A stretch of 64,000 bases of DNA from Nitrospirota bacterium. Its GTDB lineage: Bacteria; Nitrospirota; UBA9217. Where the stretch lies: NCBI GenBank assembly GCA_963751455.1, contig CAVVUN010000001.1, positions 576,001-640,000 of the forward strand, read 5' to 3'. The notes below the pieces were generated by a model that had not been told where the DNA came from, did no database searches, and was given only the letters and a program-made list of their open reading frames with translations. The translations under genes and the position numbers were made by a program. Positions 1 to 29,153 of this stretch are shown one piece after another (position 1 is the first letter of the stretch; each line of letters starts with the position of its first letter).

Positions 1-45
1 GGCGACCAGCAGATAAACGAGGCATTTTCCTGCAATCCGGGTCAT
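1..45 (-). CDS. Partial CDS (N-terminus only), next gene of the biosynthetic operon, signal-peptide-like start
   Basis: ATG at 45-43 overlaps the TGA (44-42) of the radical SAM gene (ATGA coupling); reads MTRIAGKCLVYLLVA and runs off the window. Confidence 0.55.
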   Translation of the reverse strand, partial: MTRIAGKCLVYLLVA

Positions 46-1532
46 TTAGCCACCGTGCCCGGAGCAGCCTGAATCACTTTTACCTTGCCCCGCGCGATCA
101 GATCGGTCCCGCGATAAACTTCACCGTTGACGGTGCCGTAATCGCCGTTTTTTGCAATCTTCACTACCTTTATCTGCAGGACGTCCCCTATCCGGGCAGT
201 CCCCAGGATCTCGAGCTTTTTCACTTCGGTCTCAAATCCTTCCGGTTTCGGATCACGGCTTCCGAGCTTGCGGAACCCCTCCTGTGCGGCGAGCGCCTGG
301 GAAAAGAGCTCGGGATAGGAGGCTTCGACCAAAGTCCCGGTTCCGTTGACGAACCGCGAACCGGCTTTGACCGTCATCTCGGAAACGGAGGCACGCTCCT
401 TCATTTCAATCAGCCGGTCGATCATAAGCAGCGGCGGTTTGTGCGGCACGAGCCGCGAAGCTTCTACGGGCAGAAAGAGTATCTCCTTCTTCTTATCGAT
501 ATTCTTCCAGCAGAGAGGGTCCGAGGCCAGGTAATCGCCGGTCAACTGGTAAGCGGCCCCCCGGCATCCATAGCATTCGTCAAGATCTTTACAGGAAGCG
601 CAGGGCCCCTTGATCATATGGCGGTAGCGCTTCAAGTCCTGGACGACCTCGCTGTTGCCGAGTATATCCTTCAGTTTATTGTCGCGGACGTTCCCGATCG
701 GGATCGTCACGCCGACGCACGGCTGCACATTGCCTTCGGAGCTTACCGCGCAGGAAAACTGGTGCCTGAGGCAGACTCCCCCTACGAGCGGCGGTCTCGG
801 GTCCCAGTGGTTCCCGTATTTTCTGCTGTCGATTTCCGCTATTTTGTGGAAAAACGCTTCCGCCTGTTTCGTATTGATATCAAGGGCCAGGTTTTCTTTT
901 GCCCCTCCCTGGGGCGTTATCATCTCGAAATACGGCGCAATGTTCTGGTCCCGCAGCCATTCCCACATCCGGGGGAGTTCTTCGATGTTCTGCTGGCAGA
1001 TGATTGTGCTTACGCCCATGAAGCGGTCTACCGAAGGATACCCTGCTTGCTTCAGGTTCGCGAATGCATGGTGTATCTGTGCATAGGCCCCGGTTCTGCC
1101 TGAAAGCATGTCCTGCATCTTTTCATCGAAGCTGTTCATCTTGAGGACGACCCGGACTTTATAGTCATGGAGTGTTCGCGCCATATCGGCAGTGATCCCG
1201 GTCCCGTTCGTGAAAAGTTCAATCTCCATGCCCAGGCTTCTGATGAACTCTATCATTTCCATGATCGAGGGATAGAGCATCGGCTCGCCGCCGAGAATGA
1301 TGATCTTGCGGGCCCCGAGATTCTTCGCCTGGGTGATGACGTCCTTGAATTGGTCCTTGGTCAGCTCGTTCCGCCGATTTCCGTTCTCTGAGGCGTAACA
1401 GTAGATGCAGTGAAAATTGCAAACACTGTTGAACTCTATCTCCATCGAGAGCAGCCTGCCGTTCCGGACGGCATCCGCTATTTCGGCGGCTGAGAATTCC
1501 GCCGCATAAATTCTGGTCTGGCAACTATTCAT
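42..1532 (-). CDS. Radical SAM/SPASM enzyme fused to a C-terminal FabZ-like hot-dog domain
   Basis: CNFHCIYC (CxxxCxxC), GGEP, SPASM-type cysteines (C..QPC..CASC..ECYGCRG..DPLC), then LVPHKPPLLMIDRL...ELFSQ hot-dog motif. Confidence 0.88.
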   Translation of the reverse strand: MNSCQTRIYAAEFSAAEIADAVRNGRLLSMEIEFNSVCNFHCIYCYASENGNRRNELTKDQFKDVITQAKNLGARKIIILGGEPMLYPSIMEMIEFIRSLGMEIELFTNGTGITADMARTLHDYKVRVVLKMNSFDEKMQDMLSGRTGAYAQIHHAFANLKQAGYPSVDRFMGVSTIICQQNIEELPRMWEWLRDQNIAPYFEMITPQGGAKENLALDINTKQAEAFFHKIAEIDSRKYGNHWDPRPPLVGGVCLRHQFSCAVSSEGNVQPCVGVTIPIGNVRDNKLKDILGNSEVVQDLKRYRHMIKGPCASCKDLDECYGCRGAAYQLTGDYLASDPLCWKNIDKKKEILFLPVEASRLVPHKPPLLMIDRLIEMKERASVSEMTVKAGSRFVNGTGTLVEASYPELFSQALAAQEGFRKLGSRDPKPEGFETEVKKLEILGTARIGDVLQIKVVKIAKNGDYGTVNGEVYRGTDLIARGKVKVIQAAPGTVAK

Positions 1533-2871
1533 GGCTTTTCCTCTTATCGACGAATCTGATCAGCTTCCGGGCATTCCCGGGATAAACCTGTTTTCGCACC
1601 TGTTCCGCGCTCTCTATCATTACCGGAGGACGGACGCGTAAACGGGTCTGCAGCTTGTCCATGATCATCCCCGGGGTATAGGTATCGTCCTTGACCGCGA
1701 CCGTGACCGTTATAATGTCGGACAGGTCGTAATCATTTGTTGCGGTAACGTAATAATCGGTGACCGAGGGAACCGCATCCAGCACCTCGTAAACCGCGTT
1801 CGGGTACAGTGTCGTTCCCCGGAACTTGATCATCTGCTTTTTCCTCCCGAGGATAGGTCCCAGCCTCGGCGAGAAACGGCCGCAGGAACAAGGTTCGTCG
1901 GTCAGAAAGCTGACGTCTCCGGTCCTGAAGCGGATGAGCGGCATGCCCTCGATCCGGAGCGGGGTCACGACGACCTCGCCGTCTGCTCCCGGCGCTGCTC
2001 TTTTCCCGCTGTCATCCACGATCTCGACAACCGCGAGATCGGGATGGAGGTGCCCTCCCTGCTGCGCGGTGCACTCGCAAAAAGAGGTTATCGTCTCTGA
2101 AGACGCGTAGGTCGAGTAAATCTTTGCGCCCCACACTTCCTCAAGAGCTTCTCCGAGTTTTATAAACCGGAGGCTTCTGTCTCTGATCGGCTCGCCGATG
2201 CAGATCAGCTTCCGAATGCCCGTCTGACGGGGATCGGTTTGCTGAGACTGCAGATGCCGCCCGAGTTTCAGCAGAAATGACGGCACACCCACGAGGGCGG
2301 TCGGTTTAAGCCTCTGGATGATCTCGAAATGGCTCTCGACGCTGCTTAAACCGTTCCTGATCGCGGCGGCCCCCAGCCGCCGGACACCCGAGAAGTACGC
2401 GAGGCCTGCAATGAAGCACCGGTCCATCGTGCAGGTCAGGAGCACTACGTCATCCCGCGTCATGCCGCAGCTGCTGAAGGAAATCTCCTCATTATACGCA
2501 AGGCGCTCGAGGTCGTTTCCGGTGTACATCATCGTTGTCGGCTTGCCTGTCGTGCCTGATGAAAGGACTATATCGGAGATGTCCGGTCGTGGAACCGCCA
2601 GAAAATCTTCATTGTACTGCCCGAATTCCGACTTGTCCGTAAGGGGCAGCTGCTGAAGAGAGTCCAACGTTACGGCTGCGGCGTCTATCCCGTGCTTTTG
2701 AAAAAGCCTCCGATAATAGGGAGAACGCGCGGCTGCATACTGTATATGGCTCTGAAGCAGGGCTTCCTGGATTTTCTTTATCTCTTCAGGACGGGAGAAC
2801 TCAAGTTTTCTGTTCCTGTCGAATTCTGTCGCACTCATAAGTGATACGCTGAAGCCCTTTCTCGTTGCCAC
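1525..2871 (-). CDS. Phenylacetate-CoA ligase (PaaK)-family adenylate-forming enzyme
   Basis: SSGTTGKP loop, TYASSE, PLIRFRTGD, GRKKQMIK; overlaps the downstream gene. Confidence 0.85.
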   Translation of the reverse strand: MATRKGFSVSLMSATEFDRNRKLEFSRPEEIKKIQEALLQSHIQYAAARSPYYRRLFQKHGIDAAAVTLDSLQQLPLTDKSEFGQYNEDFLAVPRPDISDIVLSSGTTGKPTTMMYTGNDLERLAYNEEISFSSCGMTRDDVVLLTCTMDRCFIAGLAYFSGVRRLGAAAIRNGLSSVESHFEIIQRLKPTALVGVPSFLLKLGRHLQSQQTDPRQTGIRKLICIGEPIRDRSLRFIKLGEALEEVWGAKIYSTYASSETITSFCECTAQQGGHLHPDLAVVEIVDDSGKRAAPGADGEVVVTPLRIEGMPLIRFRTGDVSFLTDEPCSCGRFSPRLGPILGRKKQMIKFRGTTLYPNAVYEVLDAVPSVTDYYVTATNDYDLSDIITVTVAVKDDTYTPGMIMDKLQTRLRVRPPVMIESAEQVRKQVYPGNARKLIRFVDKRKSHE

Positions 2872-2905: not shown

Positions 2906-5323
2906 TTAAATCCTGACTTTAACGCGGTCGGGGCCCTCCTTGCTTTCTTTCAGCTCGATGCCCCGTTCCAGGACACTGCACATGGACGGAATGACAATTA
3001 CAGCCGAAACATATCCTGTAACGGTGCAAATAACCATGGCAAGGCCGGTTGAAAACAAAGCCGGGTGTTTCGCCAACAGCAGAACGCCGGCGCCCAGAAC
3101 ATTCGTGACTGCGGAAAGCGTTATGGCGACGACAGTCCCGGTTCGGAGATTGTTCCGGTATTCATACGTGACGCCCAGGCCGTAATCCACAATAACGCCG
3201 ATCATGACGATGAGAGCAATCATGTTTACAATGTTGAAACTGAGTTTAAAGAGGGCCATGATGCCGATCAGCCAGACGACCCCCGTCAGCACCGGAACCA
3301 GCGCGATGAAAGCCTCTTTCCAGTTTCTGAAGAAAAAGACAGCCGGGAGGACATTGAGCAGGACGGCAATAGGAGCGAGAATTTTCATCTCACGCGACGA
3401 GAAACGGGATATCGCAGATGACATTTCCCTGCCCGAGACAATGAACGTACCCGGGTATTTCTTTGCTACGAGCTTAAGCGCATCAACCGTCTGCTGTTCT
3501 TCGGGAAAGAATGACAGTATACCGGCCCCGTCTGCCTTCAGAACAACAAAACGCTCATGGAGTTTTGATATCATTCCGTCGGCAGTTTTGCCGGCGTCAT
3601 CATGTTCATACAGCCCTTCGAAAAAAGGGGTAAAGGCCTTGTCGGAAAAGCCATGCCGGGGAGAAAGCTCCCGAATCAGCCCTTTCAGCTTCCGTTCCCG
3701 GCCCTCTTTCCAGAAGCGGTCCCAGTGTATGCTATTTTCCTTCCTCACTTTTTCAGAAGGCCAGAAATAAGCGAGACTCGTGAAATTTTCCTGCCCTACG
3801 GCACTGGTTGCGTCACGGTACACGAGGTCATTCTTCTCTGTCGCCTCTTCATAGGTTTTCCCCTGTACGACGAAAATTGCCTGGTTGCTCTTTCCGCCCC
3901 ATATATCGTGAAACTCCTCCTGATCAGCCAGCACCTTTGGGTCACTGCCGTCCAACTTTTTAAGATCGCTGTCGAAGTGAACGGTAAAGGCAAAAAACAG
4001 GAGAATGAGGGTCGATACTGCCCAAATGCCGATATTAATCCCGGCCCATCCATGGAATTTTTGAAGCCGGTCTCCCCCGGGAGGCAGGAACGTAGCGGAG
4101 TCGCGCGGACGCAGTACGAGAGGCAGCACGAACAGGGCAAAAAGGAGGCTGACAACCACACACAGGATCGAGAACGAGGCCAGCTGATGGTACCCGCGAA
4201 TCACCGAGAAATAAAGGGCCGCGAAACTGAAGATGGTCGTGGCTGCGTCTATCATAATGAGTTTTGCCACCTTCACCGTCCGCATCGTATCTACCCCGCT
4301 TCTCAGCGCTATGTAGACAAGCAGGCCGAAATCAGTCGAGATTCCGGCGATGGCCGTTCCAAGCCCGATTACCAGGTATGAGAGCCTGCCTTCAAGGCCG
4401 GTGCCGATAATAATGGCCCAGGTTACGGCTGCAGCCGGTATCAGAAAAACGAAGATCGCCCGAAAATCGCGAAACGCCAGAACGAAAAGCAGGAGGAATG
4501 CCGCCGAAGCGATCACCGAAGCGACCTTGATGTCCCGCTTGATTACCCGCTCGTTGCTGACTGTATGGAAATGACCGCTGACCATTGCGGCGGAAACGTA
4601 AGGCGGCAGCTGGCTGATCCGGTCCTGAACCGCCTGCACGACCGCAGCGCTCCCCTGTCCGTCGAGCATCGAGACCGGTGTCTGTACAATCAGCATCGTA
4701 TGCAGTCCGTCCCTGCTCATGAAATGACCGTCCTCGACAGCGACGTCATATCCCATGGAAGCAGGCAAGGCGCGCAGCTTGCCGAAAATGAGAAGTTTAA
4801 TGCCCAAAGGATCGGTCCGCGAGAGAGCAGACAGGAATATGCTTTCCGGCCGGAGGGACTGACGGAAGATCGTCCGCATCTGCTCATTAACGCTTTCCGG
4901 ACTGATTTTCCGGTCAAGGGCCGTGTAATCTTCTTCGTTCAATATCTGCGGTCCGTATCGGAGTACCGAGAACTCCTCCATCATATCGGCCGGCGAGAAA
5001 CCGGAAATGACCCTGGTAAAAAGCGGCGGGGTCAAGGCGGCGGCAAGCTGGTCGGCTGCAAAAAACAATTCTTTTTTGCTTTTTGAGGGGTCAGTCAGTC
5101 CCAGGGATATGATGATTTTATCCGAAAGGCTCGAGTCCCGGAGAGTGGCCAGGCTGCGGCTGATTTCAGGGTCGGGTGGGAGCATCACATCGATGCTGCT
5201 GTCGTAGCGGATAAACCAGAGGGCTCCGGCAGCGGCCGCTGTTGCGGAAAGAACGATCGCCAGGACCGCCCTTTTGTGGTCCCTGATCGCCTGAAACAGA
5301 TATAACAATAACGCGTCAAACAT
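2906..5323 (-). CDS. MMPL/RND-family lipid exporter
   Basis: 805 aa with two repeats of a periplasmic loop plus TM bundle; GISTDFG and GVIVDYG motifs. Confidence 0.85.
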   Translation of the reverse strand: MFDALLLYLFQAIRDHKRAVLAIVLSATAAAAGALWFIRYDSSIDVMLPPDPEISRSLATLRDSSLSDKIIISLGLTDPSKSKKELFFAADQLAAALTPPLFTRVISGFSPADMMEEFSVLRYGPQILNEEDYTALDRKISPESVNEQMRTIFRQSLRPESIFLSALSRTDPLGIKLLIFGKLRALPASMGYDVAVEDGHFMSRDGLHTMLIVQTPVSMLDGQGSAAVVQAVQDRISQLPPYVSAAMVSGHFHTVSNERVIKRDIKVASVIASAAFLLLFVLAFRDFRAIFVFLIPAAAVTWAIIIGTGLEGRLSYLVIGLGTAIAGISTDFGLLVYIALRSGVDTMRTVKVAKLIMIDAATTIFSFAALYFSVIRGYHQLASFSILCVVVSLLFALFVLPLVLRPRDSATFLPPGGDRLQKFHGWAGINIGIWAVSTLILLFFAFTVHFDSDLKKLDGSDPKVLADQEEFHDIWGGKSNQAIFVVQGKTYEEATEKNDLVYRDATSAVGQENFTSLAYFWPSEKVRKENSIHWDRFWKEGRERKLKGLIRELSPRHGFSDKAFTPFFEGLYEHDDAGKTADGMISKLHERFVVLKADGAGILSFFPEEQQTVDALKLVAKKYPGTFIVSGREMSSAISRFSSREMKILAPIAVLLNVLPAVFFFRNWKEAFIALVPVLTGVVWLIGIMALFKLSFNIVNMIALIVMIGVIVDYGLGVTYEYRNNLRTGTVVAITLSAVTNVLGAGVLLLAKHPALFSTGLAMVICTVTGYVSAVIVIPSMCSVLERGIELKESKEGPDRVKVRI

Positions 5324-5384: not shown

Positions 5385-6254
5385 TCATGTCTTAAGAACT
5401 TTCCTTGTCTTCATGATGAAGCTGCCGGCCGATTTTCCTTCAATGGTCAGTCCGGCTTTTATGGTGAAGCTGTCATCATCGCGCACGACTTTCACTTCAG
5501 CCGCTACCTGATCGCCGGGCAAGACCTGCCTCGAGAATTTCGCTCTATCAACCGCCGACAGGACCATCGGACAGGAACTCGCTTGTTCAGCCAATACCAA
5601 CGTCAAATGGAGCAGAGCCACTCCCGGAACGATGGGATATCCGGGGAAGTGGCCGCGGAAACCCGGGAAATCATGATCGAACGAGATTTTTCCGCGGACA
5701 AGTCCGTCCTGGGTGGACTCCATTCCGGAGATCTTGCTGCGAAAATAATTATGGACAAGGGTTTCACCAGGAAGCTCATTTTCCGCAGAACAGCCCGCTG
5801 TGGCCGGATCATAGGCTTTTTTTAGCGGCGACGGGTTATCGAACACAAAGAGCTTCAGGTTTCCTTTTGCCAGAAGGTCCTTGCCCCGGTAAACGTCGCC
5901 TTCTACTATAGTGAAATTGTTCAGCTGCATCCCTTTTCGCAATTTCAAGTCCAGTTCGTCGCCGGCAACCGCTTTTCCCATTACCATGAAGTCATTGACC
6001 CCGGCAAGAAAACCGCTTCTGACCGGCTTGCCCGCCTTTGTCGATTCATAGCCGTCGCCGGCAGCGGCCAATTGCGCAAGGAGTTCCACAAAACAAGCTG
6101 CGTCAAGGCCGCGGGAGCTGATGAAAATATTTCCGGGCTTGATGACTGTTTTTCCTTCCATAAAATCCGAACTGCTGGCACAGAGTTTATCGAGAAGAAG
6201 CATTGATTCCCTGTGGGGAATAATGTCTTTTGCATCAACCGGGAATTGCATCAT
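5385..6254 (-). CDS. Tandem hot-dog 3-hydroxyacyl-ACP dehydratase (ApeP/ApeI-like fusion)
   Basis: N-domain IPHRESMLLLD...ELLAQ; C-domain FRGHFPGYPIVPGV. Confidence 0.85.
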   Translation of the reverse strand: MMQFPVDAKDIIPHRESMLLLDKLCASSSDFMEGKTVIKPGNIFISSRGLDAACFVELLAQLAAAGDGYESTKAGKPVRSGFLAGVNDFMVMGKAVAGDELDLKLRKGMQLNNFTIVEGDVYRGKDLLAKGNLKLFVFDNPSPLKKAYDPATAGCSAENELPGETLVHNYFRSKISGMESTQDGLVRGKISFDHDFPGFRGHFPGYPIVPGVALLHLTLVLAEQASSCPMVLSAVDRAKFSRQVLPGDQVAAEVKVVRDDDSFTIKAGLTIEGKSAGSFIMKTRKVLKT

Positions 6255-6291
6255 GTCATCGTCCTTGCTGATAGCAGTCGAACGCCCCGTT

Positions 6292-7032
6292 CTACCCGTC
6301 CAGGCGTCCCCTTATTACTGCTTCAACATGCTTTTTTAATTTGATCGCCCGGCGCTCTTCGGGAAATGAAGATGGATGCACAGGCGGAAGAATTTCCATT
6401 TTGACCGTTGCGCGCCTCACCAGGTGGTCTTTCATGGGTAAAAATTTTTCAGTCCCGGTCATGCAGACCGGAACCACAGGAATGTTCAATTCGGCTGCGA
6501 GCAGGAATGCCCCTGAACGGAAAACCTGCAGCCTGCCGTCGCGCGAGCGGTGTCCTTCCGGAAAAAAAAGAAACGAAGCGGCCCGTTCCCGAAGGGCCTT
6601 GCCGTGTCCCGCAACAAACTCCCTGACGTCCGTTTTCTCAATATCGACATACCCGGCCCTTTTCATGAACCAGCTGAGCACCCAGAGCCTGAAGGGCCAT
6701 GACCGAACAAATACGACCGTATTCGACGGTGTAAAAAACGGCGCAAAGAAAATATCCGCAGTGGAACGGTGATTGACGACGATAACGCATGCACTGCCGA
6801 CCGGTATGTTTTCTCTTCCCGCCGATACTATCTTCAGGAGCGGACGCGATGAACGGACCAGAAAACGGCCGTATAACCTGTTGAAGACCCGGAGCGCGTC
6901 GTCGATCATGCCCTTGTATATCAACCGATGCCCGATGATGATGAAGGGCGTCATTAACCCGTAGAGAGCCGTAGCGAGAACAAGATAAAAGAGATAAACT
7001 ACGGTGACTACGGTAAGCGAAATTTTTATCAT
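6292..7032 (-). CDS. Lysophospholipid acyltransferase (PlsC-like)
   Basis: NHRSTAD (HxxxxD) and FPEGHRS motifs. Confidence 0.88.
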   Translation of the reverse strand: MIKISLTVVTVVYLFYLVLATALYGLMTPFIIIGHRLIYKGMIDDALRVFNRLYGRFLVRSSRPLLKIVSAGRENIPVGSACVIVVNHRSTADIFFAPFFTPSNTVVFVRSWPFRLWVLSWFMKRAGYVDIEKTDVREFVAGHGKALRERAASFLFFPEGHRSRDGRLQVFRSGAFLLAAELNIPVVPVCMTGTEKFLPMKDHLVRRATVKMEILPPVHPSSFPEERRAIKLKKHVEAVIRGRLDG

Positions 7033-7050
7033 GTGTTTATACGGCCGGGA

Positions 7051-7311
7051 TTAAATACTTTTCTGCTTCTCGATGATGAAGCCATACACATCGCTCAAGG
7101 TTCGAATAGCCCGGATCTTTGCTTCATCCGTGTTTCTCGATATTTTAAAGTTGAATTCGTGCTCCAGCGCGACGACGAGATCGACACTGTCCAGACTGTC
7201 CAGCCCAAGCTCCTCGTACAGATTGGCCCCGGGCTTGAGCATTTCTTCGTTAAGTTCAAACTCCTGCACCAGGATTTTCTTAACGCGTTCGGCGATCTCC
7301 TGTTCGGTCAT
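7051..7311 (-). CDS. Acyl carrier protein
   Basis: 86 aa, acidic, LGLDSLD phosphopantetheine site; GGAGG RBS upstream. Confidence 0.92.
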   Translation of the reverse strand: MTEQEIAERVKKILVQEFELNEEMLKPGANLYEELGLDSLDSVDLVVALEHEFNFKISRNTDEAKIRAIRTLSDVYGFIIEKQKSI

Positions 7312-7318
7312 GTTGTTT

Positions 7319-8557
7319 TTAAAACCTCCTTAGAATAAGTACGGAATTTATGCCCCCGAAGGCAAAGCTGTTTTTTATGACGGTATTGATTCTGTTGTTC
7401 GCCTGACCGTTCACATGGGAGACGATGTCGCAGCCTTCCCCCGGGTTCTTCAGATTAAGGGTGGGGATTAATTTTCCGCGATGCATCATCTGAACCGAAG
7501 CTGCAAGCTCCAGCGCTCCGCTCGCGCCCAAGGTGTGTCCCATGTGACCTTTGAGACTGCTTACCGGCACTTTTTTCTCTCCGAAAACCTCGCGTATGGC
7601 TTCCGCTTCAGCCTGATCCCCGAGGAGTGTTCCCGTCGCATGGGCATTGATATAATCCACGGCATCCGGACCGATTTCTGCGTTTGTGAGTGCGTCCTTT
7701 ATGCACCGGGCGATCGAGGCGCTGTGGGGCTGGGCGAGATGGGTCCCGTCTGACGAAGTCGAAAAGCCGGTTATCTCCGCGAGAATGACTGCGCCCCGCT
7801 CCCGTGCGCTCTCTACGGATTCGAGAACGATGCATCCGGCGCCTTCGCCGCAGACGGTCCCGTCCCGTTCGCTGTCAAACGGCCGCGGAGTTTCCCGGGG
7901 ATTGTCGTTATATTTGCATGACGTGGCGTTCAGCAGATCGAACGAACCGCACACAAGAGCATCGAGTTCATCCGCCCCCCCGCAGATCATGATGTCCTGA
8001 AGCCCGTACCGTATAGCCTCATACCCGAGGCCGATTGCCTGCGCCGAAGAAGAGCAGGCCGAATCCGGAGATATTACCCTGCCGGATATGTTCAACGCGT
8101 GGGCGATATTTGCAGCGCACGTATGGCTCATCACCTGGAAAAAAGCGCCGGACGATATATTCCGAAGCGAACCGGTCGTGAGATACTCCTTGAAATATTC
8201 GGTCAGAGATTCGGCGCTTCCCATGGATGACGAAAAACTCACTCCCGTCCTGCCCGACGAAAAGCAGGCTTCCGGAAGCCGCGCTTCCCGAATTGCTTCC
8301 TGCGCGGCATGCAGGGCCATCATCGCGGTGAGCCCCATGGTGCGCCGGTATTTTCTCGGAATCGCTTTCGGCGGAAGCGGCCCCTTGAGCGGAGCTCCCA
8401 CCCAGCAGTTCAGATCATGGATGCGGCTCTCCCATTTCTCTTTTTGAGAAACAACCGCTGACTCGCCGGCATACAGGCCGTCGATCATCGGCTTCATGCC
8501 TATTCCGAAAGGCGAAACCGCTCCCATTCCCGTAATAACGACTTTTTTTACCTGCAT
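7319..8557 (-). CDS. Beta-ketoacyl-ACP synthase (FabF/FabB family)
   Basis: SACSSS, HATGT, GHTLGA (Cys-His-His triad), NSFAFGG. Confidence 0.92.
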   Translation of the reverse strand: MQVKKVVITGMGAVSPFGIGMKPMIDGLYAGESAVVSQKEKWESRIHDLNCWVGAPLKGPLPPKAIPRKYRRTMGLTAMMALHAAQEAIREARLPEACFSSGRTGVSFSSSMGSAESLTEYFKEYLTTGSLRNISSGAFFQVMSHTCAANIAHALNISGRVISPDSACSSSAQAIGLGYEAIRYGLQDIMICGGADELDALVCGSFDLLNATSCKYNDNPRETPRPFDSERDGTVCGEGAGCIVLESVESARERGAVILAEITGFSTSSDGTHLAQPHSASIARCIKDALTNAEIGPDAVDYINAHATGTLLGDQAEAEAIREVFGEKKVPVSSLKGHMGHTLGASGALELAASVQMMHRGKLIPTLNLKNPGEGCDIVSHVNGQANNRINTVIKNSFAFGGINSVLILRRF

Positions 8558-9996
8558 TTTATTATCTCGTTCCAGAGGGTCTTGGCATCGAGGATCATAA
8601 ACGCCGCTAAAAACCCTGAAATCATGCTGCTCATCACGCCGGGGACCAGGATGCTCTGCCCGGCGAGGTAAAGCCCTTTGACCGGTGTGGCCTGCGATAA
8701 TTGCGCCTGATCGATCGACTGCTTTACTCCATACATCGAACCCCCGGGTGTACCCGTATATCTCTCATACGTAAACCGTGTCGCGCTGTCCGCGACTTTG
8801 CACTTTCCCCTGAATCCGGGGAATATCTCCAAAAACTGGCTCATGGATTTTTCGGTCTCCCACGCCTTATACTCGAGGTATCGCTCGGAGCGCCACTGAA
8901 CGTCCCGCAATTCCGGGGGAACATCGTCCGTCCCGGATTCGCGCAGAACGCAGAGCGCCTTTTTGTTGCCTGCATCGGTATTCGGTCCGCATGCCATGAT
9001 CGAGATGGGCGGCTTTCCCGATTTCCCAAACGAGTGATAATTGGTCCCGACCAGTTCTGCGGGAACATGATCGGTTTGAAGAAATACCGCAAAAGCCGAA
9101 GTCGTATTCTCGATCCGTTTGAGCCGGGATATATAGGCCGGGCGGACCGCTTCGCGGGGCAGGATATCGCGCAACAGAGCAGGATGCATCGTGCTTACGC
9201 AATGGCTGCACTCGAGCAGCTCTCCCCCGGAGATGCGAACACCGGTGAGCCGCCGCCCCTCGCCAGCCTCGATCCCGGTCGCCGTTTTGCCGCAGAGAAT
9301 CTCCACGCCCTCCTGTTTGAGCCGGGAAGAAAAAGCAGTCACGAGCTCGTCTCCGCCGTGGACAAGCGTTTGAGGAGAGCGGTAAAAAGTGCCCATGACC
9401 ATCGCGTGAAGGTAAAACGGTATTTCGCGTCCGGGTGATCCATAGAGAAACTGGCCGTATGCCCCGAGCAATTGCACAAGCGCCTCTTCGGCGCCCCGCT
9501 GGCGTAAAAAAACGTCGAGAGACTCGTTGCAGGTCGGGTCCGTCGGGACTTCGTTATAATTGAGGCTGAAATTTAAAAAGGCGGTCGATCCGAGCACGTA
9601 CTCGATCTTGCTGATATATTCATCGATCGCGTGTTTGCTTTTCGGGAAGCTGCCGGACAACGCGTCCCGGATATTCTCAATCCCGGCCGGGAACACGACT
9701 TCCTGCTCGCCGTTGCGTAAGACGTCGTATCCGTTCTCGTTCATCGGAACCGGGTTTATCTTGTCCCGCATTCTGAGATAGCGGAAAATAACCGACATGG
9801 TTCCCGATTCTTCGAACCCGCCTGTATAATGAAAACCCGGGTCACACCAGAAATCTCCGCGTTTAAACCTGCGGATCAAGGGAGCTATGCGGCTGCTTCT
9901 TTCGATGAGGGCAACGCGCTGTCCGTTTTGTGCGAGAACCAGGGCGGAGGTCAATCCGCTCATCCCGGATCCGATGACTACCGTATCATAACGCAC
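8548..9996 (-). CDS. Phytoene dehydrogenase (CrtI)-like FAD oxidoreductase
   Basis: GSGMSG dinucleotide fold, DPGFHYTGG, GSMYG, GLYLAGQS. Confidence 0.85.
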   Translation of the reverse strand: MRYDTVVIGSGMSGLTSALVLAQNGQRVALIERSSRIAPLIRRFKRGDFWCDPGFHYTGGFEESGTMSVIFRYLRMRDKINPVPMNENGYDVLRNGEQEVVFPAGIENIRDALSGSFPKSKHAIDEYISKIEYVLGSTAFLNFSLNYNEVPTDPTCNESLDVFLRQRGAEEALVQLLGAYGQFLYGSPGREIPFYLHAMVMGTFYRSPQTLVHGGDELVTAFSSRLKQEGVEILCGKTATGIEAGEGRRLTGVRISGGELLECSHCVSTMHPALLRDILPREAVRPAYISRLKRIENTTSAFAVFLQTDHVPAELVGTNYHSFGKSGKPPISIMACGPNTDAGNKKALCVLRESGTDDVPPELRDVQWRSERYLEYKAWETEKSMSQFLEIFPGFRGKCKVADSATRFTYERYTGTPGGSMYGVKQSIDQAQLSQATPVKGLYLAGQSILVPGVMSSMISGFLAAFMILDAKTLWNEIIKCR

Positions 9997-11212
9997 TATT
10001 TGTTCCTATCAGGAGGCAGGAGTTTGTGCCGCCGAATCCGGCCGCATTGCATAATATGATCCCCGGCTTTTGATCGATGGTTTCCGCTGCAAGCCTTAAC
10101 GGCGAAGCGTCTTGTTCCTGTCCGGACAAATTAATGTTCGGCGCGATGAAACCGTCCATTCCCATAATCACCGAGTAGACCACCTGAGCGCCCCCCGCCA
10201 TCCACATCTCATGACCGGTCATCGACTTGGTCGACGATACCCATGGCGTTTTCCCGCCGAACACCTCGTAGATCGAACGCGCTTCGGCCGCGTCTCCTAC
10301 AGGAGTCGAGGTCGCGTGCGCACAAACGTAATCCACTTTGTCCGGAGAAGCTCCGCCTCTCTGAAGACATTCCTTCATACAGCGTTTGATGCCTTCGCCC
10401 GAGGGAACAGCGAGTTTCGATCCGTCGGAGCTGAACGCATAGGCCAGGATCTTTCCCAGAATCTGCGCTCCCCTTTTTTTTGCGAGCTCGTACCGCTCAA
10501 GCGCTACGATTGCCGCTCCTCCGCTCGGCACGAGACCGTCCCTGTCCTTGTCAAACGGCCGGGAGGCCCGTTCCGGGTCGTCCTGCCGGAGGGAAAAAGC
10601 ATTGGTTGCATCGAAGCTGGAAACGGATTCCCAACTGATTTCCTGGGCTCCTCCGCAGAGCACCCTGTCCTGGCGACCGAGCGCGATCAGGTCTCCCCCC
10701 TGGCCTATGGCATGGCTCCCGCTTGCGCAAGCTCCGCTGATCGTCCAGGAGGCTCCGAGAATGCCGAGTATTGTGCTCAGGTTCATTGAAACGGTGGAGT
10801 TCAGCGCCTGGAAAACAAGGCCGGCTCCGATGGGGAAGGTGCTTTTTTCTGCCAGAGTGGTCCGAACCTGCTGAAAATTGGCGATCGTCGAGGAATCGTT
10901 GCCGATGATGAGGCCGGTCCGATCGCTTTGCACGTCGCCGTCGGTCCATCCGGCCATCTGGATCGCTTCACGCGCAGCCGCATAAGTCCAGAGGCCGAAG
11001 TCGGTCATCGTGCGGCATTTTTTACGGTCCAGCTCGCGAGGAACAACAAAATCGCCGATGTGGCCCGTGAGCGCGCTGCGAAACCCAAGCTCTTTCCGGA
11101 CAGGGTCGAATTTGATCCCCGAGCGGCCGTTTTGAAGAGATGCTTTAACTTTTGCTCTGCCGGTGCCAAGGCTCGATACGATACCGATGCCTGTTATCGC
11201 TATTTCATACAT
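9986..11212 (-). CDS. Beta-ketoacyl-ACP synthase (FabB-like)
   Basis: GACASG, HATST, GHEMWMAG, GFGGTN. Confidence 0.92.
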   Translation of the reverse strand: MYEIAITGIGIVSSLGTGRAKVKASLQNGRSGIKFDPVRKELGFRSALTGHIGDFVVPRELDRKKCRTMTDFGLWTYAAAREAIQMAGWTDGDVQSDRTGLIIGNDSSTIANFQQVRTTLAEKSTFPIGAGLVFQALNSTVSMNLSTILGILGASWTISGACASGSHAIGQGGDLIALGRQDRVLCGGAQEISWESVSSFDATNAFSLRQDDPERASRPFDKDRDGLVPSGGAAIVALERYELAKKRGAQILGKILAYAFSSDGSKLAVPSGEGIKRCMKECLQRGGASPDKVDYVCAHATSTPVGDAAEARSIYEVFGGKTPWVSSTKSMTGHEMWMAGGAQVVYSVIMGMDGFIAPNINLSGQEQDASPLRLAAETIDQKPGIILCNAAGFGGTNSCLLIGTNSAL

Positions 11213-11245
11213 AAAGATTCAATGTAAAACGGACGAACATCCGTC

Positions 11246-11983
11246 TCACATATATATGCCCCCATTGATGCCGATGACTTGACCGACGATATATGATGCG
11301 TTGTCGGAACAAAGAAATTCGACCACTGCCGCAACCTCATCAGGCTTACCGAAGCGCCCGGCTGGAATAGAGGGCAATATTCTGTCGACCGGGAGGTCTT
11401 TCGTCATATCGGTCTCAATAAAACCCGGCGCAACGCAATTAACAATAATGCCCCGTTTGCAGACTTCGGCGGCAAGCGACTTTGTGGCGCCGATCAGCCC
11501 TGCCTTGGCTGCGGAATAGTTTACTTGCCCGGCAAGGCCGCTTTGTCCGGCTGTAGAAGCGATATTAATAATGCGGCCCGAACGCCTTTTCATCATCCCT
11601 ACCAGGACGGCCTTGGTCACGAAAAAAAAACCGAGAAGATTTACATTCGTGACGCTTTCCCAATCCTGGCGCGTCATCCACATCATGAGCGTATCCTTGG
11701 TAAGACCGGCATTATTGACGAGGACATTGGGAACGGACTTGGCAAGCATGGGTTCCAGGGTTTCAAAGACGCTTTTCTCATCGCAAACGTCGAATGGAAG
11801 CAGAACACATTCCCTTCCCAGGCCGTTTATTTCTTCCTGTATCTTTTTTGCTGCTTCGTGGTTACTGTGATAATTGACCCAGATATCATAGCCCGCCCTG
11901 GCAAGACGCAGAGCGATGGCGGCGCCAAGCCCCCTGCTGGCGCCTGTAATAAGTGCTGTTCGGCGATGGTTGTCTTCGCTCAT
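11246..11983 (-). CDS. fabG: 3-oxoacyl-ACP reductase
   Basis: TGASRGLG, NNAG, YSAAK; start moved to ATG 11983, which has a GGGGGA RBS, rather than 12064. Confidence 0.9.
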   Translation of the reverse strand: MSEDNHRRTALITGASRGLGAAIALRLARAGYDIWVNYHSNHEAAKKIQEEINGLGRECVLLPFDVCDEKSVFETLEPMLAKSVPNVLVNNAGLTKDTLMMWMTRQDWESVTNVNLLGFFFVTKAVLVGMMKRRSGRIINIASTAGQSGLAGQVNYSAAKAGLIGATKSLAAEVCKRGIIVNCVAPGFIETDMTKDLPVDRILPSIPAGRFGKPDEVAAVVEFLCSDNASYIVGQVIGINGGIYM

Positions 11984-12488
11984 TATTCCCCCGGATCTGA
12001 GACGTCCTTGCAACTTACTTCGACAAGTACAACGTCGTCCATTACAAAGGTCCTGATCTGTCACAAAGGCGTATAAATTGAAACAAATTGAAACCTTATA
12101 ATACCTTCATCACCATATTTTTGTCAATTCATATTTTCCAAAGGATATTAAGTTGACTTTACTCTGAGGCTTCAAAGGAGGCGTAATGAAAAGTTTTATG
12201 AACGTTGCACGAATTTTCAACGTCATCACAATAATGTTTAGACATATTCGCAGTCTGATAAGCTCATATTTACTTTCGTCCGCTATTCAATTCACTAGAT
12301 TTCAGTCATCCACGGGTTCTTCAACCCCGGCTATTGGGACCGTTTATAATTATTTGACAAACCGATCCGGACAAATTATTATCATCCGGATTTGAAAGAA
12401 TAGGGACTGACCCCTTTATACCTTCTTGCAAACGCGTTCGCGAATATATATATATGTAAACCTCGATCGGTAACAAAGCGAATACGTA

Positions 12489-12517
12489 TTGCACTTTTTT
12501 TCAATAAATGCTATATA
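12489..12517 (+). promoter_or_regulatory. Putative sigma70 promoter of the dar operon
   Basis: TTGCAC-17bp-TATATA with an extended TG; overlaps the track ATG at 12508, so the real start is probably GTG 12550. Confidence 0.45.
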
Positions 12518-12549
12518 ATTTCGATTGCAGATGGAAGGTGGATTGGCCT

Positions 12550-13533
12550 GTGCCCCGGTCGGGATTCGATTCTAAGTCAAAATATAAAAAACGCGTTCTT
12601 GTCTTACATTATTCCCAAACCGGTCAGCTTAATTCAGCCCTGCGCAAGATGATGACGCCGCTGGAGGAGCTGCCTGATCTAGAGCTGATTTGGGAAGAGC
12701 TTAAGCCTGTCAAGCCATACCCCTTTCCCTGGCCTGTTTTCGATTTTTTCGAGGTATTCCCCGAATCCGTGCATATGGATGCGCCGGACCTGCAGCCTGT
12801 TGCCTTTGATCCGGACGGGAGGTTCGACCTCGTGATCATGGCCTATCAGGTATGGTTTTTGTCCCCGTCATTGCCTGTGACCGGCTTTCTTAAATCCGGG
12901 GCAGCGCGGGTCCTTCAAGGAAAGCCTGTCGTTACCCTTATCGTATGCAGGAACATGTGGCTTACGGCCCAGGAAAAGATGAAGGGCCTGATTGCATCAA
13001 ATGGCGGACATCTTATAGACAATGTGGTTCTTGTGGACCGGGGCGCACCGTGGACCACGTTTGTAACAACTCCGCGCTGGCTGTTGACCGGAAAGAAAAA
13101 CGGCTTTTGGGGTATATTCCCTCCCGCAGGAGTAAGCCGGGAAGACATTGACGGTGCGGCAAGGTTCGGCAGGGCGCTTGCGGATGGGCTCAGCAAACTG
13201 GAGGGAAGGCCTCCTTATGCATCTTTACTGAACGGTCTCGGCGCTGTCCGGGTAAACCCCGGGTATATCATGGGTGAAAAGATAGCCCACAGGAGTTTCT
13301 ATATCTGGGGGAAGCTGCTTAAGAGCGTGGGTGGTCCGGGTACTCTGCGGCGAAGGATTATGCTTCTGGTGTATATTGTCTTCCTGGTAACTATGATACT
13401 TACCGTGCTTCCGTTGAGCATAGTTGTCCGGGCTGTTTTAAGGCCTTTTTTTCGCCGAAAACTCGACGCGGAGGTTGCAAGGCTGGAGGGTCCATCAGGT
13501 TCTTCTCTCGAGCGTATAATTTTGTATGAATAA
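12550..13533 (+). CDS. darA: Dialkylresorcinol condensing enzyme
   Basis: VLVLHYSQTGQL, YPFPW..FFEVFPE, YQVWFLSPSLP, CRNMW are DarA hallmarks; start uncertain (12508-12550). Confidence 0.9.
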   Translation: MPRSGFDSKSKYKKRVLVLHYSQTGQLNSALRKMMTPLEELPDLELIWEELKPVKPYPFPWPVFDFFEVFPESVHMDAPDLQPVAFDPDGRFDLVIMAYQVWFLSPSLPVTGFLKSGAARVLQGKPVVTLIVCRNMWLTAQEKMKGLIASNGGHLIDNVVLVDRGAPWTTFVTTPRWLLTGKKNGFWGIFPPAGVSREDIDGAARFGRALADGLSKLEGRPPYASLLNGLGAVRVNPGYIMGEKIAHRSFYIWGKLLKSVGGPGTLRRRIMLLVYIVFLVTMILTVLPLSIVVRAVLRPFFRRKLDAEVARLEGPSGSSLERIILYE

Positions 13534-14695
13534 TGAAAACTGTTTGACGAATAAAGTTTTTATTGCAGATATAGCGTCCTTTTTGCCGAATGCGCCGGTC
13601 GTGAACGACAAGATTGAGGATGTCCTCGGCATGGTTGACGGGCAGAAGTCGCGCTCTCGCAGGATTGTCCTCAGGAGCAACGGGATAATAACGCGCCATT
13701 ATGCCATTGATCCGACATCCGGAAAATTCACTCACAACAACGCAAAGATGACCGCTGAGGCTGTGCGCGAATTATTAAAAAAAAGCAGTGTCAGGCTGGA
13801 TGAAATAGATTGCCTCAGTTGCGGAACTTCGAGTCCCGATCAGTTGCAGCCCGCGCACGGCTGCATGGTCCAGGGCGAGCTCTCCATGCCGCCAACAGAG
13901 GTTGCGACGACATCGGGCGTCTGTCTTTCCGGGATCACGGCAATGAAGTATGCGTACACGAGCATAGCATCAGGGATGACCGGCTCCGCTGTCGCAACCG
14001 GGTCGGAGTTTGCGTCGAGCGCAATGCGGTCTTCATACTTCGAAACAGATGACCCGGCAAAGTACGAAGAGTTGAAAAATAAACCGTCCCTTGCCTTTGA
14101 AAAAGACTTCCTCAGATGGATGCTCTCCGACGGCGCCGGCGCAGCGCTTTTGACGAACAAACCGAACTCCGGCCGCACCTCTCTTCGCATAGACTGGATC
14201 GACATCCTTTCTTTTTCAGGAAACCTGCCGGTGTGCATGTATGCCGGCGGCGTCAAACGTGAAGACGGCTCCTTCGAAGGAATGCGTGAAGTTGACGATC
14301 CCCAAAAGCTGCTGAAGGAGCATTACCTCGTATTGAAGCAGGATGCACGCATCCTTGACGAGCATATTCTACCCGTGTCGGCACAAACCCTTGTGACTAT
14401 TGCGGCAAAACGAGGTCTCCAACCGGACGAAATCACGTGGTTCCTGCCGCACTATTCGTCGGAATATTTCAGGACAGGGCTTCATGACGCATTTGCGGAT
14501 GGCGGTTTCCCTATTCCGTTCGAAAAATGGTTCACCAATCTTCCCGTAAAAGGGAATGTGGGGGCCGCCTCTATCTATCTTATCATTGAAGAACTTTTTT
14601 ACTCGGGACGCCTCAAACCGGGGGACCGTCTTCTCTGCTACATCCCGGAGAGCGCCCGCTTTTCTATCGGATACATGTTGTTGACGGTAGTATAA
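13526..14695 (+). CDS. darB: DarB/StlD-family ketosynthase (KAS III-like)
   Basis: GVCLSG, FEKDFLRWMLSDGAGA, PHYSS, GNVGAAS, PESARF; overlaps darA. Confidence 0.9.
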   Translation: MNNENCLTNKVFIADIASFLPNAPVVNDKIEDVLGMVDGQKSRSRRIVLRSNGIITRHYAIDPTSGKFTHNNAKMTAEAVRELLKKSSVRLDEIDCLSCGTSSPDQLQPAHGCMVQGELSMPPTEVATTSGVCLSGITAMKYAYTSIASGMTGSAVATGSEFASSAMRSSYFETDDPAKYEELKNKPSLAFEKDFLRWMLSDGAGAALLTNKPNSGRTSLRIDWIDILSFSGNLPVCMYAGGVKREDGSFEGMREVDDPQKLLKEHYLVLKQDARILDEHILPVSAQTLVTIAAKRGLQPDEITWFLPHYSSEYFRTGLHDAFADGGFPIPFEKWFTNLPVKGNVGAASIYLIIEELFYSGRLKPGDRLLCYIPESARFSIGYMLLTVV

Positions 14696-14719
14696 AAATA
14701 AGAAACCAGGAAACGAGAG

Positions 14720-15133
14720 ATGAAAGCCAAAGACGTGCCTCAGGAAGAATGGATTACAGGTCACGGCCGCCGGGCGTGCTATGCCGAGGATGACAGCGGC
14801 AGATATGTCGTTGTGCCGAGCAAGGGATGGGAGGTCGAGAAAATCGTCAATGCCCAGGCCCATGCTGAAATCCAGCGCAGGCTTGAAGAGGTGAAGCGAG
14901 AAGTGGCTGCGGGCAAGGCAAGTCCCCTGAAATATCACATGGAAAATAACATGATGGACGTCGCCCTCCTTGCCGCGACATCCGGGTTCTGGAAATGCCA
15001 GGTCAGAAGGCATCTTCAGCCCGGGCGTTTTAACGCTCTTGACAACAAGTCCTTGGAGCTTTACGCAAAGATCTTTCGCATTTCAGTAGCGGACCTTCGG
15101 AAACTCCCTTCCGGAGAAGGGAGTTCATCATAA
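14720..15133 (+). CDS. Conserved hypothetical protein of dar clusters
   Basis: VPQE..YAEDDSGRY..S.GWEVE..SPL.YHM pattern; lies between darB and the BtrH-like gene. Confidence 0.7.
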   Translation: MKAKDVPQEEWITGHGRRACYAEDDSGRYVVVPSKGWEVEKIVNAQAHAEIQRRLEEVKREVAAGKASPLKYHMENNMMDVALLAATSGFWKCQVRRHLQPGRFNALDNKSLELYAKIFRISVADLRKLPSGEGSSS

Positions 15134-16135
15134 TTGTCTAAAACCTTTGAACACCGCCATTCCGGACACTGTGAATCCGGGGCGCTGTCCGCCCTTCTCA
15201 GGGACAGAGGCCTTGATCTGAGCGAGCCGATGGTCTTCGGACTCTCCGGAGGCGTCTTTTTTGTGCACGTCCCCTTCCTCAAGATGGGCGGTATACCGCT
15301 GACGGCTTACCGGGACGCCCCCGGCGCCATTGTAAAAAAAGCCTGCAAGCGGCTTGCTATCGGAGTGAAGACGATGCGTTTCCGCGATGAGGCTGAAGGA
15401 ATGGAAACACTCGATTCCCTGCTGGCGAATGGGATGTCGGTCGGACTCAGGACCAACGTGTATTGGCTTCCGTATTTCCCGAGAGAAATGCGCTTTCAGT
15501 TTAACGCCCACCATCTCGTTGTGTTCGGCAAGGAAGGCGACGATTACCTGATAAGCGATCCGGTCTTTGACCACATCGTGAAGTGCCCGGCCGCCGATCT
15601 TAGGCGGGCGCGTTTTGCGAAAGGCATCTTTGCGCCGAAGGGCCATCTGTTCTATCCTGTTTCCATTCCGGCCTCGTTCGACATGAAAACTGCAGTCAGG
15701 AAGAGCTTGCGCGAAAGCTGCAAACGCATGACCTCGATACCCCTCCCGTTTTTCGGGATCCGGGGCATGCACTACCTGGCGCGCGAGTTCAGGAGATGGC
15801 CGGTAAAAATGGACGCTGCAAAGGCCGTCCTTAATGTCGGTTCAGTGGTTCGCATGCAGGAAGAGATCGGCACCGGCGGGGCGGGCTTCCGTTTCATGTA
15901 TGCCGCTTTTTTGCAGGAGGCCTCGGAGACCATGGGCCTCCCTGCGCTAAAAGAAGCCTCCAAAATGATGGGTGAGACCGGGGACCGCTGGAGGGCCTTT
16001 GCCGTAAAAGGCGCCCAACTCTGCAAAGGCCACATCAGCGGGAACGAAGTTTTCAATGAACTTTCCGATATGCTGAAAGATTGCGCGGACAGGGAAAAGA
16101 AAATCTACGCTCTTATACTCAAGATGATCGCATGA
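15134..16135 (+). CDS. BtrH N-terminal-domain (papain-like) acyltransferase/peptidase
   Basis: HCESGA catalytic Cys, FNAHH, SDP, EEIGTGGAGFRFMYAAFLQEA. Confidence 0.85.
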   Translation: MSKTFEHRHSGHCESGALSALLRDRGLDLSEPMVFGLSGGVFFVHVPFLKMGGIPLTAYRDAPGAIVKKACKRLAIGVKTMRFRDEAEGMETLDSLLANGMSVGLRTNVYWLPYFPREMRFQFNAHHLVVFGKEGDDYLISDPVFDHIVKCPAADLRRARFAKGIFAPKGHLFYPVSIPASFDMKTAVRKSLRESCKRMTSIPLPFFGIRGMHYLAREFRRWPVKMDAAKAVLNVGSVVRMQEEIGTGGAGFRFMYAAFLQEASETMGLPALKEASKMMGETGDRWRAFAVKGAQLCKGHISGNEVFNELSDMLKDCADREKKIYALILKMIA

Positions 16136-16139: not shown

Positions 16140-16406
16140 TTATCCCGGCTGAATCGCGTCCGCAAGGGCGTTCACGGATTTTATGATCCGCATGGCCTCC
16201 TTGCTGTCGTGTATCTGCAGGCCGTATTCCAGCTTCAACGCCACGCACAATTCGAGGGTGTCCAGGGAGTCAAGGCCCAGGACTGAATCCTGGCCTAAAA
16301 GGGGCAAGTCGTCCTGCACGGATTCGGGAGCGGCATCGATCCGGCATGTTTGTAAAATCAGCTTCTTTATCTTCAGCTTAAATTCAGTATCCTGCGAACC
16401 CTTCAT
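16140..16406 (-). CDS. Acyl carrier protein (DarC-like)
   Basis: LGLDSLDTLE, 88 aa, GAGGAGG RBS. Confidence 0.88.
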   Translation of the reverse strand: MKGSQDTEFKLKIKKLILQTCRIDAAPESVQDDLPLLGQDSVLGLDSLDTLELCVALKLEYGLQIHDSKEAMRIIKSVNALADAIQPG

Positions 16407-16475
16407 TACTGTAAAACCTCCTCATTTTTGCGATTCTCGCAATACGCCTTACCACAAAGCACACACGCAATCTTC

Positions 16476-16681
16476 GTAATATTCAGCTTCTTTCAGAGCG
16501 ACCTTAAGACAAATCTGAGAAAAAACTTCTATCCGCAGATTTCACAGATGGACGCAGATTTTAAAACCAGAGTTCGGGTTTTGTTTTGCCTTGCGAAATC
16601 TGCCTGCACCCGGCGCTTACGAGTGCCCGCGCGAGTGCAGGGTGCGTAATCTCTGGATAAAAAAATGACCTGAGTAGTTAG
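16476..16681. mobile_element. MITE copy 1, with a nested 42-bp insertion
   Basis: Ends GTAATATTCAG...CTGAGTAGTTAG, flanked by AATCTTC direct repeats; internal GCAGATT/AATCTGC arms; homologous to 18928 and 62857. Confidence 0.75.
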
Positions 16682-16704
16682 AAATCTTCAAGCATTAAAT
16701 AACA

Positions 16705-17952: not shown

Positions 17953-17961
17953 TGCAAGCCC

Positions 17962-20685: not shown

Positions 20686-20695
20686 GAGGTCGCTG

Positions 20696-21379: not shown

Positions 21380-21389
21380 AACTGAAATG

Positions 21390-21493
21390 CATTGCATATT
21401 GCATGTTGCAAACTTCAAATTGTAAATTTGTTTATATCCTGGCGGCTTAAAATATTTTTTCAGTTTGCAATTTACATTTTGCAATATGCAATG
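21390..21493. repeat. Intergenic palindromic element built from TTGCA-type heptad repeats
   Basis: Arms CATTGCATATTGCA / TGCAATATGCAATG. Confidence 0.65.
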
Positions 21494-21504
21494 ATCTTTT
21501 TCCT

Positions 21505-28134: not shown

Positions 28135-28145
28135 AGAACCTCATG

Positions 28146-28204
28146 GACTAACGCCGACGTGAGGAACGCGGTTGTCAGCGTTTCTCTCGACGGCGAGGTT
28201 AAAA
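28146..28204 (-). repeat. attC site
   Basis: TTTTAAC...GTTAGTC; nearly identical to the attC at 30162. Confidence 0.9.
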
Positions 28205-28249
28205 AACTGATTTTATCTCAGCTTTACTGAATTCGACCAGAAAGTGCAT

Positions 28250-29047: not shown

Positions 29048-29067
29048 AAATCCTCCAATGCCTCGGA

Positions 29068-29126: not shown

Positions 29127-29153
29127 TACTCTGCATTCGTACTGCAAGTGAAT

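Follow-up and report, generated by a model that had tools for sequence, protein, structure and literature searches.

The gene at positions 42–1532 of the window (the 64,000-nucleotide stretch of DNA analysed here) encodes a radical SAM/SPASM enzyme fused to an ApeP-type hot-dog domain and lies beside a gene for a FlxY-like CoA ligase. Where related clusters keep the ligase without the radical part, most of them contain an aromatic ammonia-lyase, and the radical part therefore likely makes the aromatic starter of a pigment-like lipid. From this distribution we propose, with about an even chance of being right, that the radical domain provides the cinnamate-type starter of an aryl-polyene/flexirubin-like lipid, and that the fusion results mostly from gene adjacency. 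The constituent domains and the cluster type (described in 2009) are already known. The features of the region are as follows:

42–1532, minus strand (read 1532→42): radical SAM/SPASM and ApeP-type hot-dog fusion (P0001), 496 residues, a single open frame
966–1436, minus strand: radical SAM core, residues 33–189; CxxxCxxC is Cys38/Cys42/Cys45 and GGEP is 81–84 (Pfam and alignment)
510–773, minus strand: SPASM region, residues 254–341, with eight cysteines (Pfam and alignment)
66–479, minus strand: ApeP-type hot-dog domain, residues 352–489; Glu408 and Gln412 kept, His motif absent (profile, fold and alignment)
1–45, minus strand: 5' end of a LolA-like gene, with an ATGA overlap with the fusion stop
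1525–2871, minus strand: FlxY-like aryl-acid CoA ligase, NF053551 at 476 bits against a cut-off of 520; 8-base overlap with the fusion start
2906–5323, minus strand: MMPL/RND exporter, ApeM-like
5385–6254, minus strand: single-chain ApeP–ApeI dehydratase, 289 residues (PF22817 and PF22818; GFLAG and GHFPG intact)
6292–12064, minus strand: FabG, two ketosynthases, CrtD-like flavoprotein, ACP and PlsC-like acyltransferase
12508–16135, plus strand: dialkylresorcinol module (341-residue gene, DarB-type ketosynthase, DarG, DarH)
16140–18915, minus strand: ABC transporter ATPase and permease, then a small ACP-like gene (16140–16406)

The fusion protein and its gene cluster

The radical SAM core matches PF04055 (E = 1.9e-25; 90.4 bits against a cut-off of 29.5), and the SPASM region matches PF13186 over residues 254–315 (34.3 bits against 21.5). 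Cys38, Cys42 and Cys45 are invariant in an alignment of close homologues, and the SPASM cysteines (254, 261, 272, 311, 314, 320, 323 and 341) are kept in all 119 of its sequences, a shorter match (P0014) having been dropped from the 120 listed homologues. Among wider orthologues, Cys261 is present in 52 of 59 and the other seven SPASM cysteines in 59 of 59. The eight cysteines are predicted to hold two auxiliary [4Fe-4S] clusters. The structure model of the fusion has a mean pLDDT of 73.9, with low confidence at residues 247–275.

The barrel and SPASM cysteine pattern are common to AhbD/NirJ2, PqqE, MftC and anSME. Unlike these enzymes, the window protein lies in a lipid cluster and lacks an N-terminal RRE/PqqD domain by Pfam scan, its cysteine motif beginning at residue 38. 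None of the named SPASM equivalogs (AhbD, NirJ/J1/J2, PqqE, MftC, GeoRSP) reaches its NCBIfam cut-off, and the best of them, AhbD, scores 138.4 against 500 bits. The missing RRE and the failure to reach any family cut-off argue against a peptide maturase; the earlier note had seen no precursor peptide. Short open reading frames in the gaps between genes, scanned as possible precursor peptides, were all nondescript; this is a weak scan that judged the frames without conservation.

The fusion is real and widespread. All 120 of the matches listed (of 2068; 468–499 residues) carry PF22817, and of 45 genome loci 38 count as close relatives, with 47–72% identity; together these results exclude a lost stop codon or assembly artefact. 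The earlier note had considered a lost stop codon unique to this assembly, which the 120 fused homologues contradict, and homologues that are always separate genes; fused and unfused orthologues both occur. The fusion is found in 16 of 36 genomes of the same family and in 0 of 24 genomes of other families in the phylum. It also occurs in records that bear the labels Nitrospirota, Geobacterales, Kiritimatiellae and Hydrogenedentota.

The C-terminal domain, of about 140 residues, has a hot-dog fold, a point on which the earlier note had allowed for doubt. An alignment profile matches PDB 6qsr_B over positions 353–492 (E = 1.1e-11), and Foldseek places 6qsr_B at rank 3 (E = 6.8e-10, TMt 0.71), ahead of FabZ structures; the top fold match for the protein is PqqE. 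Precomputed annotation assigns the domain to PF22817, named ApeP-like in the Atlas; a Pfam scan of the domain gave no family at E ≤ 0.1, and no FabZ family match was found for it. Glu408 and Gln412 are present in 119 of 119 homologues and the GHFP histidine motif is missing, indicating that the domain is an ApeP half; a complete FabZ, with His and Glu in one chain, is excluded. The roles of the Glu/His dyad are presumably those of FabZ. The architecture proposed earlier (CxxxCxxC, SPASM, hot-dog) is thus confirmed by Pfam, profile and Foldseek, and the FabZ/ApeP-like label narrows to ApeP-like. With ApeP of ApeI:ApeP (PDB 6QSR; PMC8041823 and PMC8253772, available text) the domain shares the hot-dog fold, the PH and E-x-x-x-Q motifs and the absence of a His motif. 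The available text of PMC8041823 describes ApeI/ApeP as a heterodimer sharing one active site, and the fusion ApeP is predicted to be half of a chain dehydratase that pairs with ApeI in relatives.

The setting is a type II PKS lipid cluster, which bears out the earlier interpretation, and the gene set agrees with the aryl-polyene set (PMC8253772, available text). In relatives, the usual order is FabG, CrtD-like, KS, ACP, PlsC, FlxY-like ligase, fusion, LolA-like, MMPL, lipoprotein, standalone ApeI, thioesterase, KS/CLF, B12 radical SAM genes, glycosyltransferase, LpxL-like and ACP. Of 38 close loci, 36 have the ligase adjoining the fusion; among the 30 relative loci that extend to the thioesterase, 29 include a standalone ApeI downstream. 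Beyond the window are genes for a lipoprotein, a thioesterase, KS/CLF, two B12 radical SAM enzymes (one TIGR04072, over cut-off) and a glycosyltransferase, followed further out by LpxL-like, ACP and KS/CLF genes and a third B12 radical SAM gene. The ACP-like gene at 16140–16406 was left out of gene scoring in relatives. A second cluster copy, heavily frameshifted through sequencing error or decay, is present in a 71%-complete genome (L076; G030:C8:1340001–1360000).

Among relatives with fetched context, the closest (G014) has a fusion 81% identical to that of the window and the usual arrangement. Ligase and fusion are 76–81% identical to those of the closest relative, and the upstream FabG/KS/CrtD-like/ACP/PlsC module about 30–55%. 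The whole of 5385–16135 (upstream module, didomain and dar genes) stands at about 30–55% against 60–87% for the remainder of the cluster, and the MMPL gene, downstream of the fusion in relatives, is upstream in the window. Together, 5385–16135 and the moved MMPL gene look like a module swap giving a flexirubin-like hybrid. The dar genes indicate a flexirubin-like ester: the DarB type (NF005293), DarG (NF053536) and DarH (NF053550) score over their cut-offs, two stricter models (NF053539 and NF053545) score under theirs, and the unannotated 341-residue gene stands in what we take to be the DarA position. Elsewhere in the window, 20089–24096 and 37481–41368 are two alike units, each with a regulator, an ABC ATPase and a large FtsX-like permease (labels from translations). 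The region 27475–36078 contains what we take to be restriction-endonuclease-like, TIR-like and transposase-like frames among unrelated-looking genes and is possibly a defence or mobile island.

The hot-dog domain has drifted in this genome. Changes at 10 of 63 family-conserved sites make it the most altered of the 119 (others: mean 2.7%, maximum 10.9%). The radical domain, with 3 of 192 changed (Fisher P = 7e-5 for the contrast), is under ordinary constraint. Leu435 and Gly436 of the G-x-L-L-G strand are kept in 117 of 119 sequences, and LLG at 434–436 is replaced by ETE only in the window protein and P0002. No standalone ApeI was found in this whole genome, where, apart from a FabZ-sized gene elsewhere, the ApeI half occurs only inside the 5385–6254 didomain. 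The window domain therefore differs from ApeP in being fused behind a radical SAM/SPASM enzyme, in having ETE for LLG and in being accompanied by single-chain ApeP–ApeI instead of standalone ApeI. The didomain likely does chain dehydration in its place, and the fusion ApeP appears to have largely lost its ApeI-pairing role; import of the didomain may have relaxed selection on the hot-dog, the radical domain still being needed. This link between drift and didomain comes from one genome with known context, P0002, which shares ETE, being represented by its protein sequence alone; no second genome with ETE and didomain was obtained, and no close didomain was seen in the 2 of 64 metagenome parts scanned. 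The fusion hot-dog is 31% identical (E = 5e-23) to the N-terminal half of the 5385–6254 product, which belongs to a separate small didomain family, and its origin as a duplicate of the fusion domain is excluded on these grounds. The didomain has about 17 near-full-length relatives, three of them at 60–69% identity.

Separability of the two halves

In the phylum of G061, 20 of 401 genomes gave a match, and in 19 of these 20 the radical domain is unfused; 17 of the 19 orthologues, at 44–57% identity, are in the same cluster type. In a tree of 67 radical domains (FastTree, midpoint-rooted, no bootstrap), all 33 fused copies and eight unfused ones form one clade with a support of 99. The groups outside it, including that of kuste3343 from Kuenenia stuttgartiensis, are all unfused and, where context was fetched, follow a FlxY-type ligase or sit one gene from it. 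Because these basal orthologues (kuste3344/kuste3343 among them) are ligase-adjacent, the pairing with the ligase looks older than the fusion. In six unfused Desulfobacterota genomes a FlxY orthologue was not found (best match 28–32%); these genomes have another AMP ligase, in-cluster in three, whose best family is 4-coumarate–CoA ligase at 100/335 bits.

The radical half can decay with its partner intact. Among the best 150 representatives, 53 have ApeP and 43 of the 53 retain the N-terminus; CxxxCxxC is lost in 28 of these 43, a count in which clustering at 50% over-represents fast-evolving forms and a few may be fragments. The second-cluster cysteines are kept at 109 of 112 positions and the ApeP Glu in 27 of 28. 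Dead radical forms are rare in the genome surveys, and one 57-member cluster of them is present in the Atlas. In these pseudo-radical-SAM forms (P0255, P0256, P0267, P0308, P0313 and others; L099:8984–10879, L300, L301) the CxxxCxxC loop or most of the barrel is deleted while the SPASM cysteines and ApeP are kept, and some are also fused to ApeI. A structural role or one in electron transfer is possible for the retained cluster.

ApeP is also fused to other neighbours, namely FlxY (G578; L253:4496), LpxL (L103:2552) and ApeI. One protein is a radical SAM–ApeP with a LolA-like tail (P0241, 720 residues) and another is a PlsC-like–pseudo-radical-SAM–ApeP (P0302); an ApeH–ApeI fusion is a published parallel (PMC8041823, available text). 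The two halves look separable in sequence, each decaying without the other, and the fusion is accordingly a poor guide to function.

Distribution of the ligase, the radical gene and the ammonia-lyase

From 93 genomes first listed, 80 were chosen by cluster state (13 dropped): 65 with an intact orthologue, four with a dead form, four with ApeP and without ligase or radical gene in the fetched stretch, and seven with ligase and ApeP and without the radical gene. Most of the surveyed genomes are incomplete MAGs. The aromatic lyase (PF00221) is present in seven of the 80, by protein query and by PF00221 alike, and these are exactly the seven with FlxY-type ligase and ApeP and no cluster radical SAM gene; since the first lyase examples preceded the grouping, G249, G592, G552 and G502 are not blind cases in this comparison. 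The lyase thus occurs in 7 of 9 genomes that have the ligase but no intact radical enzyme, compared with 0 of 65 that have an intact orthologue. PF00221 is likewise absent from the genome of the window, which is 100% complete by markers. The lyase background in the phylum of G062 is 2 of 111, both among the seven. Five of the seven belong to one clade, and the pattern therefore represents about 2–3 independent events. Ligase and a dead radical gene occur together in G759 and G884, where the lyase was not found, and in G1175 a dead fusion lies beside the ligase and an intact copy elsewhere.

The lyase lies inside the cluster in five of the seven genomes. In G578 it sits on a short contig of its own, and in G1004 it lies near a cluster-type glycosyltransferase on another contig. 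At L104 and L118 it fills the slot between the ligase and a standalone apeP, with gene order otherwise the same. A true flexirubin cluster (L110) has FlxY and FlxA adjacent, both over cut-off. The cluster lyases form three lineages, FlxA being one, that are 32–37% identical to each other and all carry the NQD motif of FlxA, compared with QED in the unlinked second lyase of G1004. In a quick tree of the ligases, one lyase clade nests among the radical-SAM clusters (98% support with G606), and its ligase pocket segments are near-identical to those of the window ligase. The searched literature, which left most subscription papers outside, makes no mention of a lyase-for-radical swap.

Losses elsewhere also tie the radical gene to the ligase. 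The radical gene is missing as well from seven loci with ApeP and no ligase in the fetched stretch, and the adjacent ligase is missing from three loci with a dead fusion. Ligase and radical SAM distances are correlated (r = 0.84, 41 loci), a result that we set aside because the clusters are inherited whole. In addition, the largest lyase clade lacks one or both of the B12 radical SAM genes, and the pattern could therefore be mimicked if radical enzymes were being lost in general; these genes are still present in G249 and L118.

Proposed role of the radical domain

The initiation pair in the flexirubin cluster of Chitinophaga pinensis provides a close analogy. According to the available text of PMC3992019, FlxA is a tyrosine ammonia-lyase that produces 4-coumarate, and FlxY is a 4-coumarate-CoA ligase that takes coumarate, cinnamate and 3-phenylpropionate. 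The window cluster shares with it a FlxY-like ligase, a type II PKS, dar genes, and exporter, LolA-like and acyltransferase genes. It differs in having no aromatic lyase in the genome, a radical SAM/SPASM gene beside the ligase, three added B12 radical SAM genes and a ligase under the FlxY cut-off. A likeness to aryl polyene clusters is seen in the standalone ApeI of relatives and in the LolA/MMPL/lipoprotein export genes alongside (PMC8253772, available text). In the proposed scheme, the radical domain would act at initiation, taking over from the ammonia-lyase the supply of a cinnamate-type acid to the neighbouring FlxY-type CoA ligase. It would abstract a benzylic hydrogen, after which a 3-arylpropionate (free or as a CoA/ACP thioester) could be oxidized through the auxiliary clusters to a cinnamoyl unit; alternatively, ammonia or water could be lost from Tyr/Phe or an aryl-lactate. 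For the fusion a single origin, out of the gene order ligase–X–apeP, is most likely. Its retention across several phyla counts against the scheme, as do the Desulfobacterota genomes without a FlxY orthologue, the dead radical genes of G759 and G884 with no lyase, and the window ligase's score below the FlxY cut-off. The lyase needs no oxygen, so anaerobes are not forced into the costly radical route, and substrate or product may differ between the two.

The earlier note had reasoned from the hot-dog fusion that the enzyme acts on an ACP-tethered acyl chain. Tethering of the radical domain to the dehydratase for cyclisation, desaturation or cross-linking of the growing chain accords with the type II PKS context, with the 33 fused copies in one well-supported clade and their persistence in several phyla, with the ability of hot-dog dehydratases to bind ACP (PDB titles 6n3p and 7qv0 among the Foldseek matches), and with the proposal of radical SAM enzymes for ladderane rings (PMC13459092, available text). 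We nevertheless consider it unlikely. Eight unfused copies nest in the fused clade and the basal copies are unfused; ApeP also joins FlxY, LpxL and ApeI, much as ApeH joins ApeI; in this genome the hot-dog has drifted and the radical domain has not; and the lyase pattern would be left unexplained. The hot-dog is the ordinary ApeP half of the cluster, unfused intact orthologues are common, and the lasting partner of the radical domain is the starter ligase, for which the replacement is an ammonia-lyase, all of which weakens the earlier argument. Desaturation of an arylpropionyl starter already on CoA/ACP would make it partly right.

The radical domain might instead act at initiation on another starter (non-cinnamate, reduced-ring or decarboxylated), so that lyase and radical clusters give different lipids. 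A radical route is wasteful for a product easily made by a lyase, the best family scores are those of the decarboxylases AhbD and NirJ2 (though far under cut-off), the enzyme of one clade is paired with a different kind of ligase, and anammox-like ligases differ in pocket sequence. Against this, the window ligase and the ligases of the nested lyase clade have near-identical pocket segments, and we regard a different starter as rather improbable. Least probable, and only a slight prospect in our estimation, is that the domain matures a cluster protein or cofactor, in the manner of the anaerobic sulfatase maturase, or that its loss trails that of other radical enzymes and the gain of the lyase is coincidental. 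Structures 4k36–4k39 are among the Foldseek matches, the eight-cysteine layout of the SPASM region resembles the anSME pattern, and one lyase clade has co-lost B12 radical SAM genes. However, L104 and L118 hold the lyase in the same slot yet keep all B12 enzymes, several Verrucomicrobiota clusters without B12 genes at the usual place still hold the radical gene, and no substrate protein co-varies with it in the loci examined.

If the cinnamate-type starter is correct, the radical domain would catalyse a new radical SAM reaction. The radical/lyase swap narrows the candidate substrates to Tyr, Phe, aryl-lactates and arylpropionates, either free or bound to CoA or ACP, and suggests a rescue test by feeding for a family that includes kuste3343. 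The same cluster type was reported by Rattray et al. in Kuenenia, Desulfotalea and Geobacter (PMC2649909, available text), and kuste3343 and Desulfotalea DP1855 are radical SAM genes of this ‘ladderane candidate’ cluster (PMC2649909 and PMC4790861, available text). The cluster's radical SAM genes are standing candidates for ladderane ring formation. The available texts of PMC2649909, PMC4790861 and PMC13459092 name no product for the cluster type, and the last, a 2026 review, describes the ladderane radical enzymes as still uncharacterised. In those of the first two, kuste3343 is uncharacterised and was undetected on expression in E. coli. No characterisation of the radical SAM/SPASM–ApeP family, or of kuste3343, was found in the literature searched, subscription papers being largely outside it.

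Over 343 residues, kuste3343 (P0550, which reads the same by eye as kuste3343 in supplement file 6 of PMC4790861) is 45% identical and 67% similar to the window radical domain. By locus number it follows the ‘phenylacetyl-CoA ligase’ kuste3344 (PMC2649909 and PMC4790861, available text), as the window gene lies beside its ligase. The window cluster also has Kuenenia/Desulfotalea-type features: a TIGR04072 B12 enzyme, a phytoene-dehydrogenase-like gene and divergent FabF paralogues. The Kuenenia protein has 350 residues and is unfused, compared with 496 and fused in the window, and the window genome is not anammox, its close relatives being labelled Nitrospirota. The whole family could tentatively be viewed, though we think it doubtful, as the radical SAM/SPASM counterpart of tyrosine/phenylalanine ammonia-lyase for anaerobic aryl-polyene-like lipids, forming a cinnamoyl-type starter through radical elimination or desaturation, kuste3343 with kuste3344 included. 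If so, the main ‘ladderane candidate’ cluster would make an aryl lipid, or ladderanes would start from an aromatic unit, and work on anammox lipids would be redirected. In six further loci in the phylum of G061 (L187–L192, in G299, G215, G457, G368, G436 and G414), the gene order is near that of kuste3349–3339: three KS, methyltransferase, CLF, ligase, radical SAM, B12 radical SAM, FabG, ACP and FabZ-like. Their radical enzymes group with kuste3343 in the tree.
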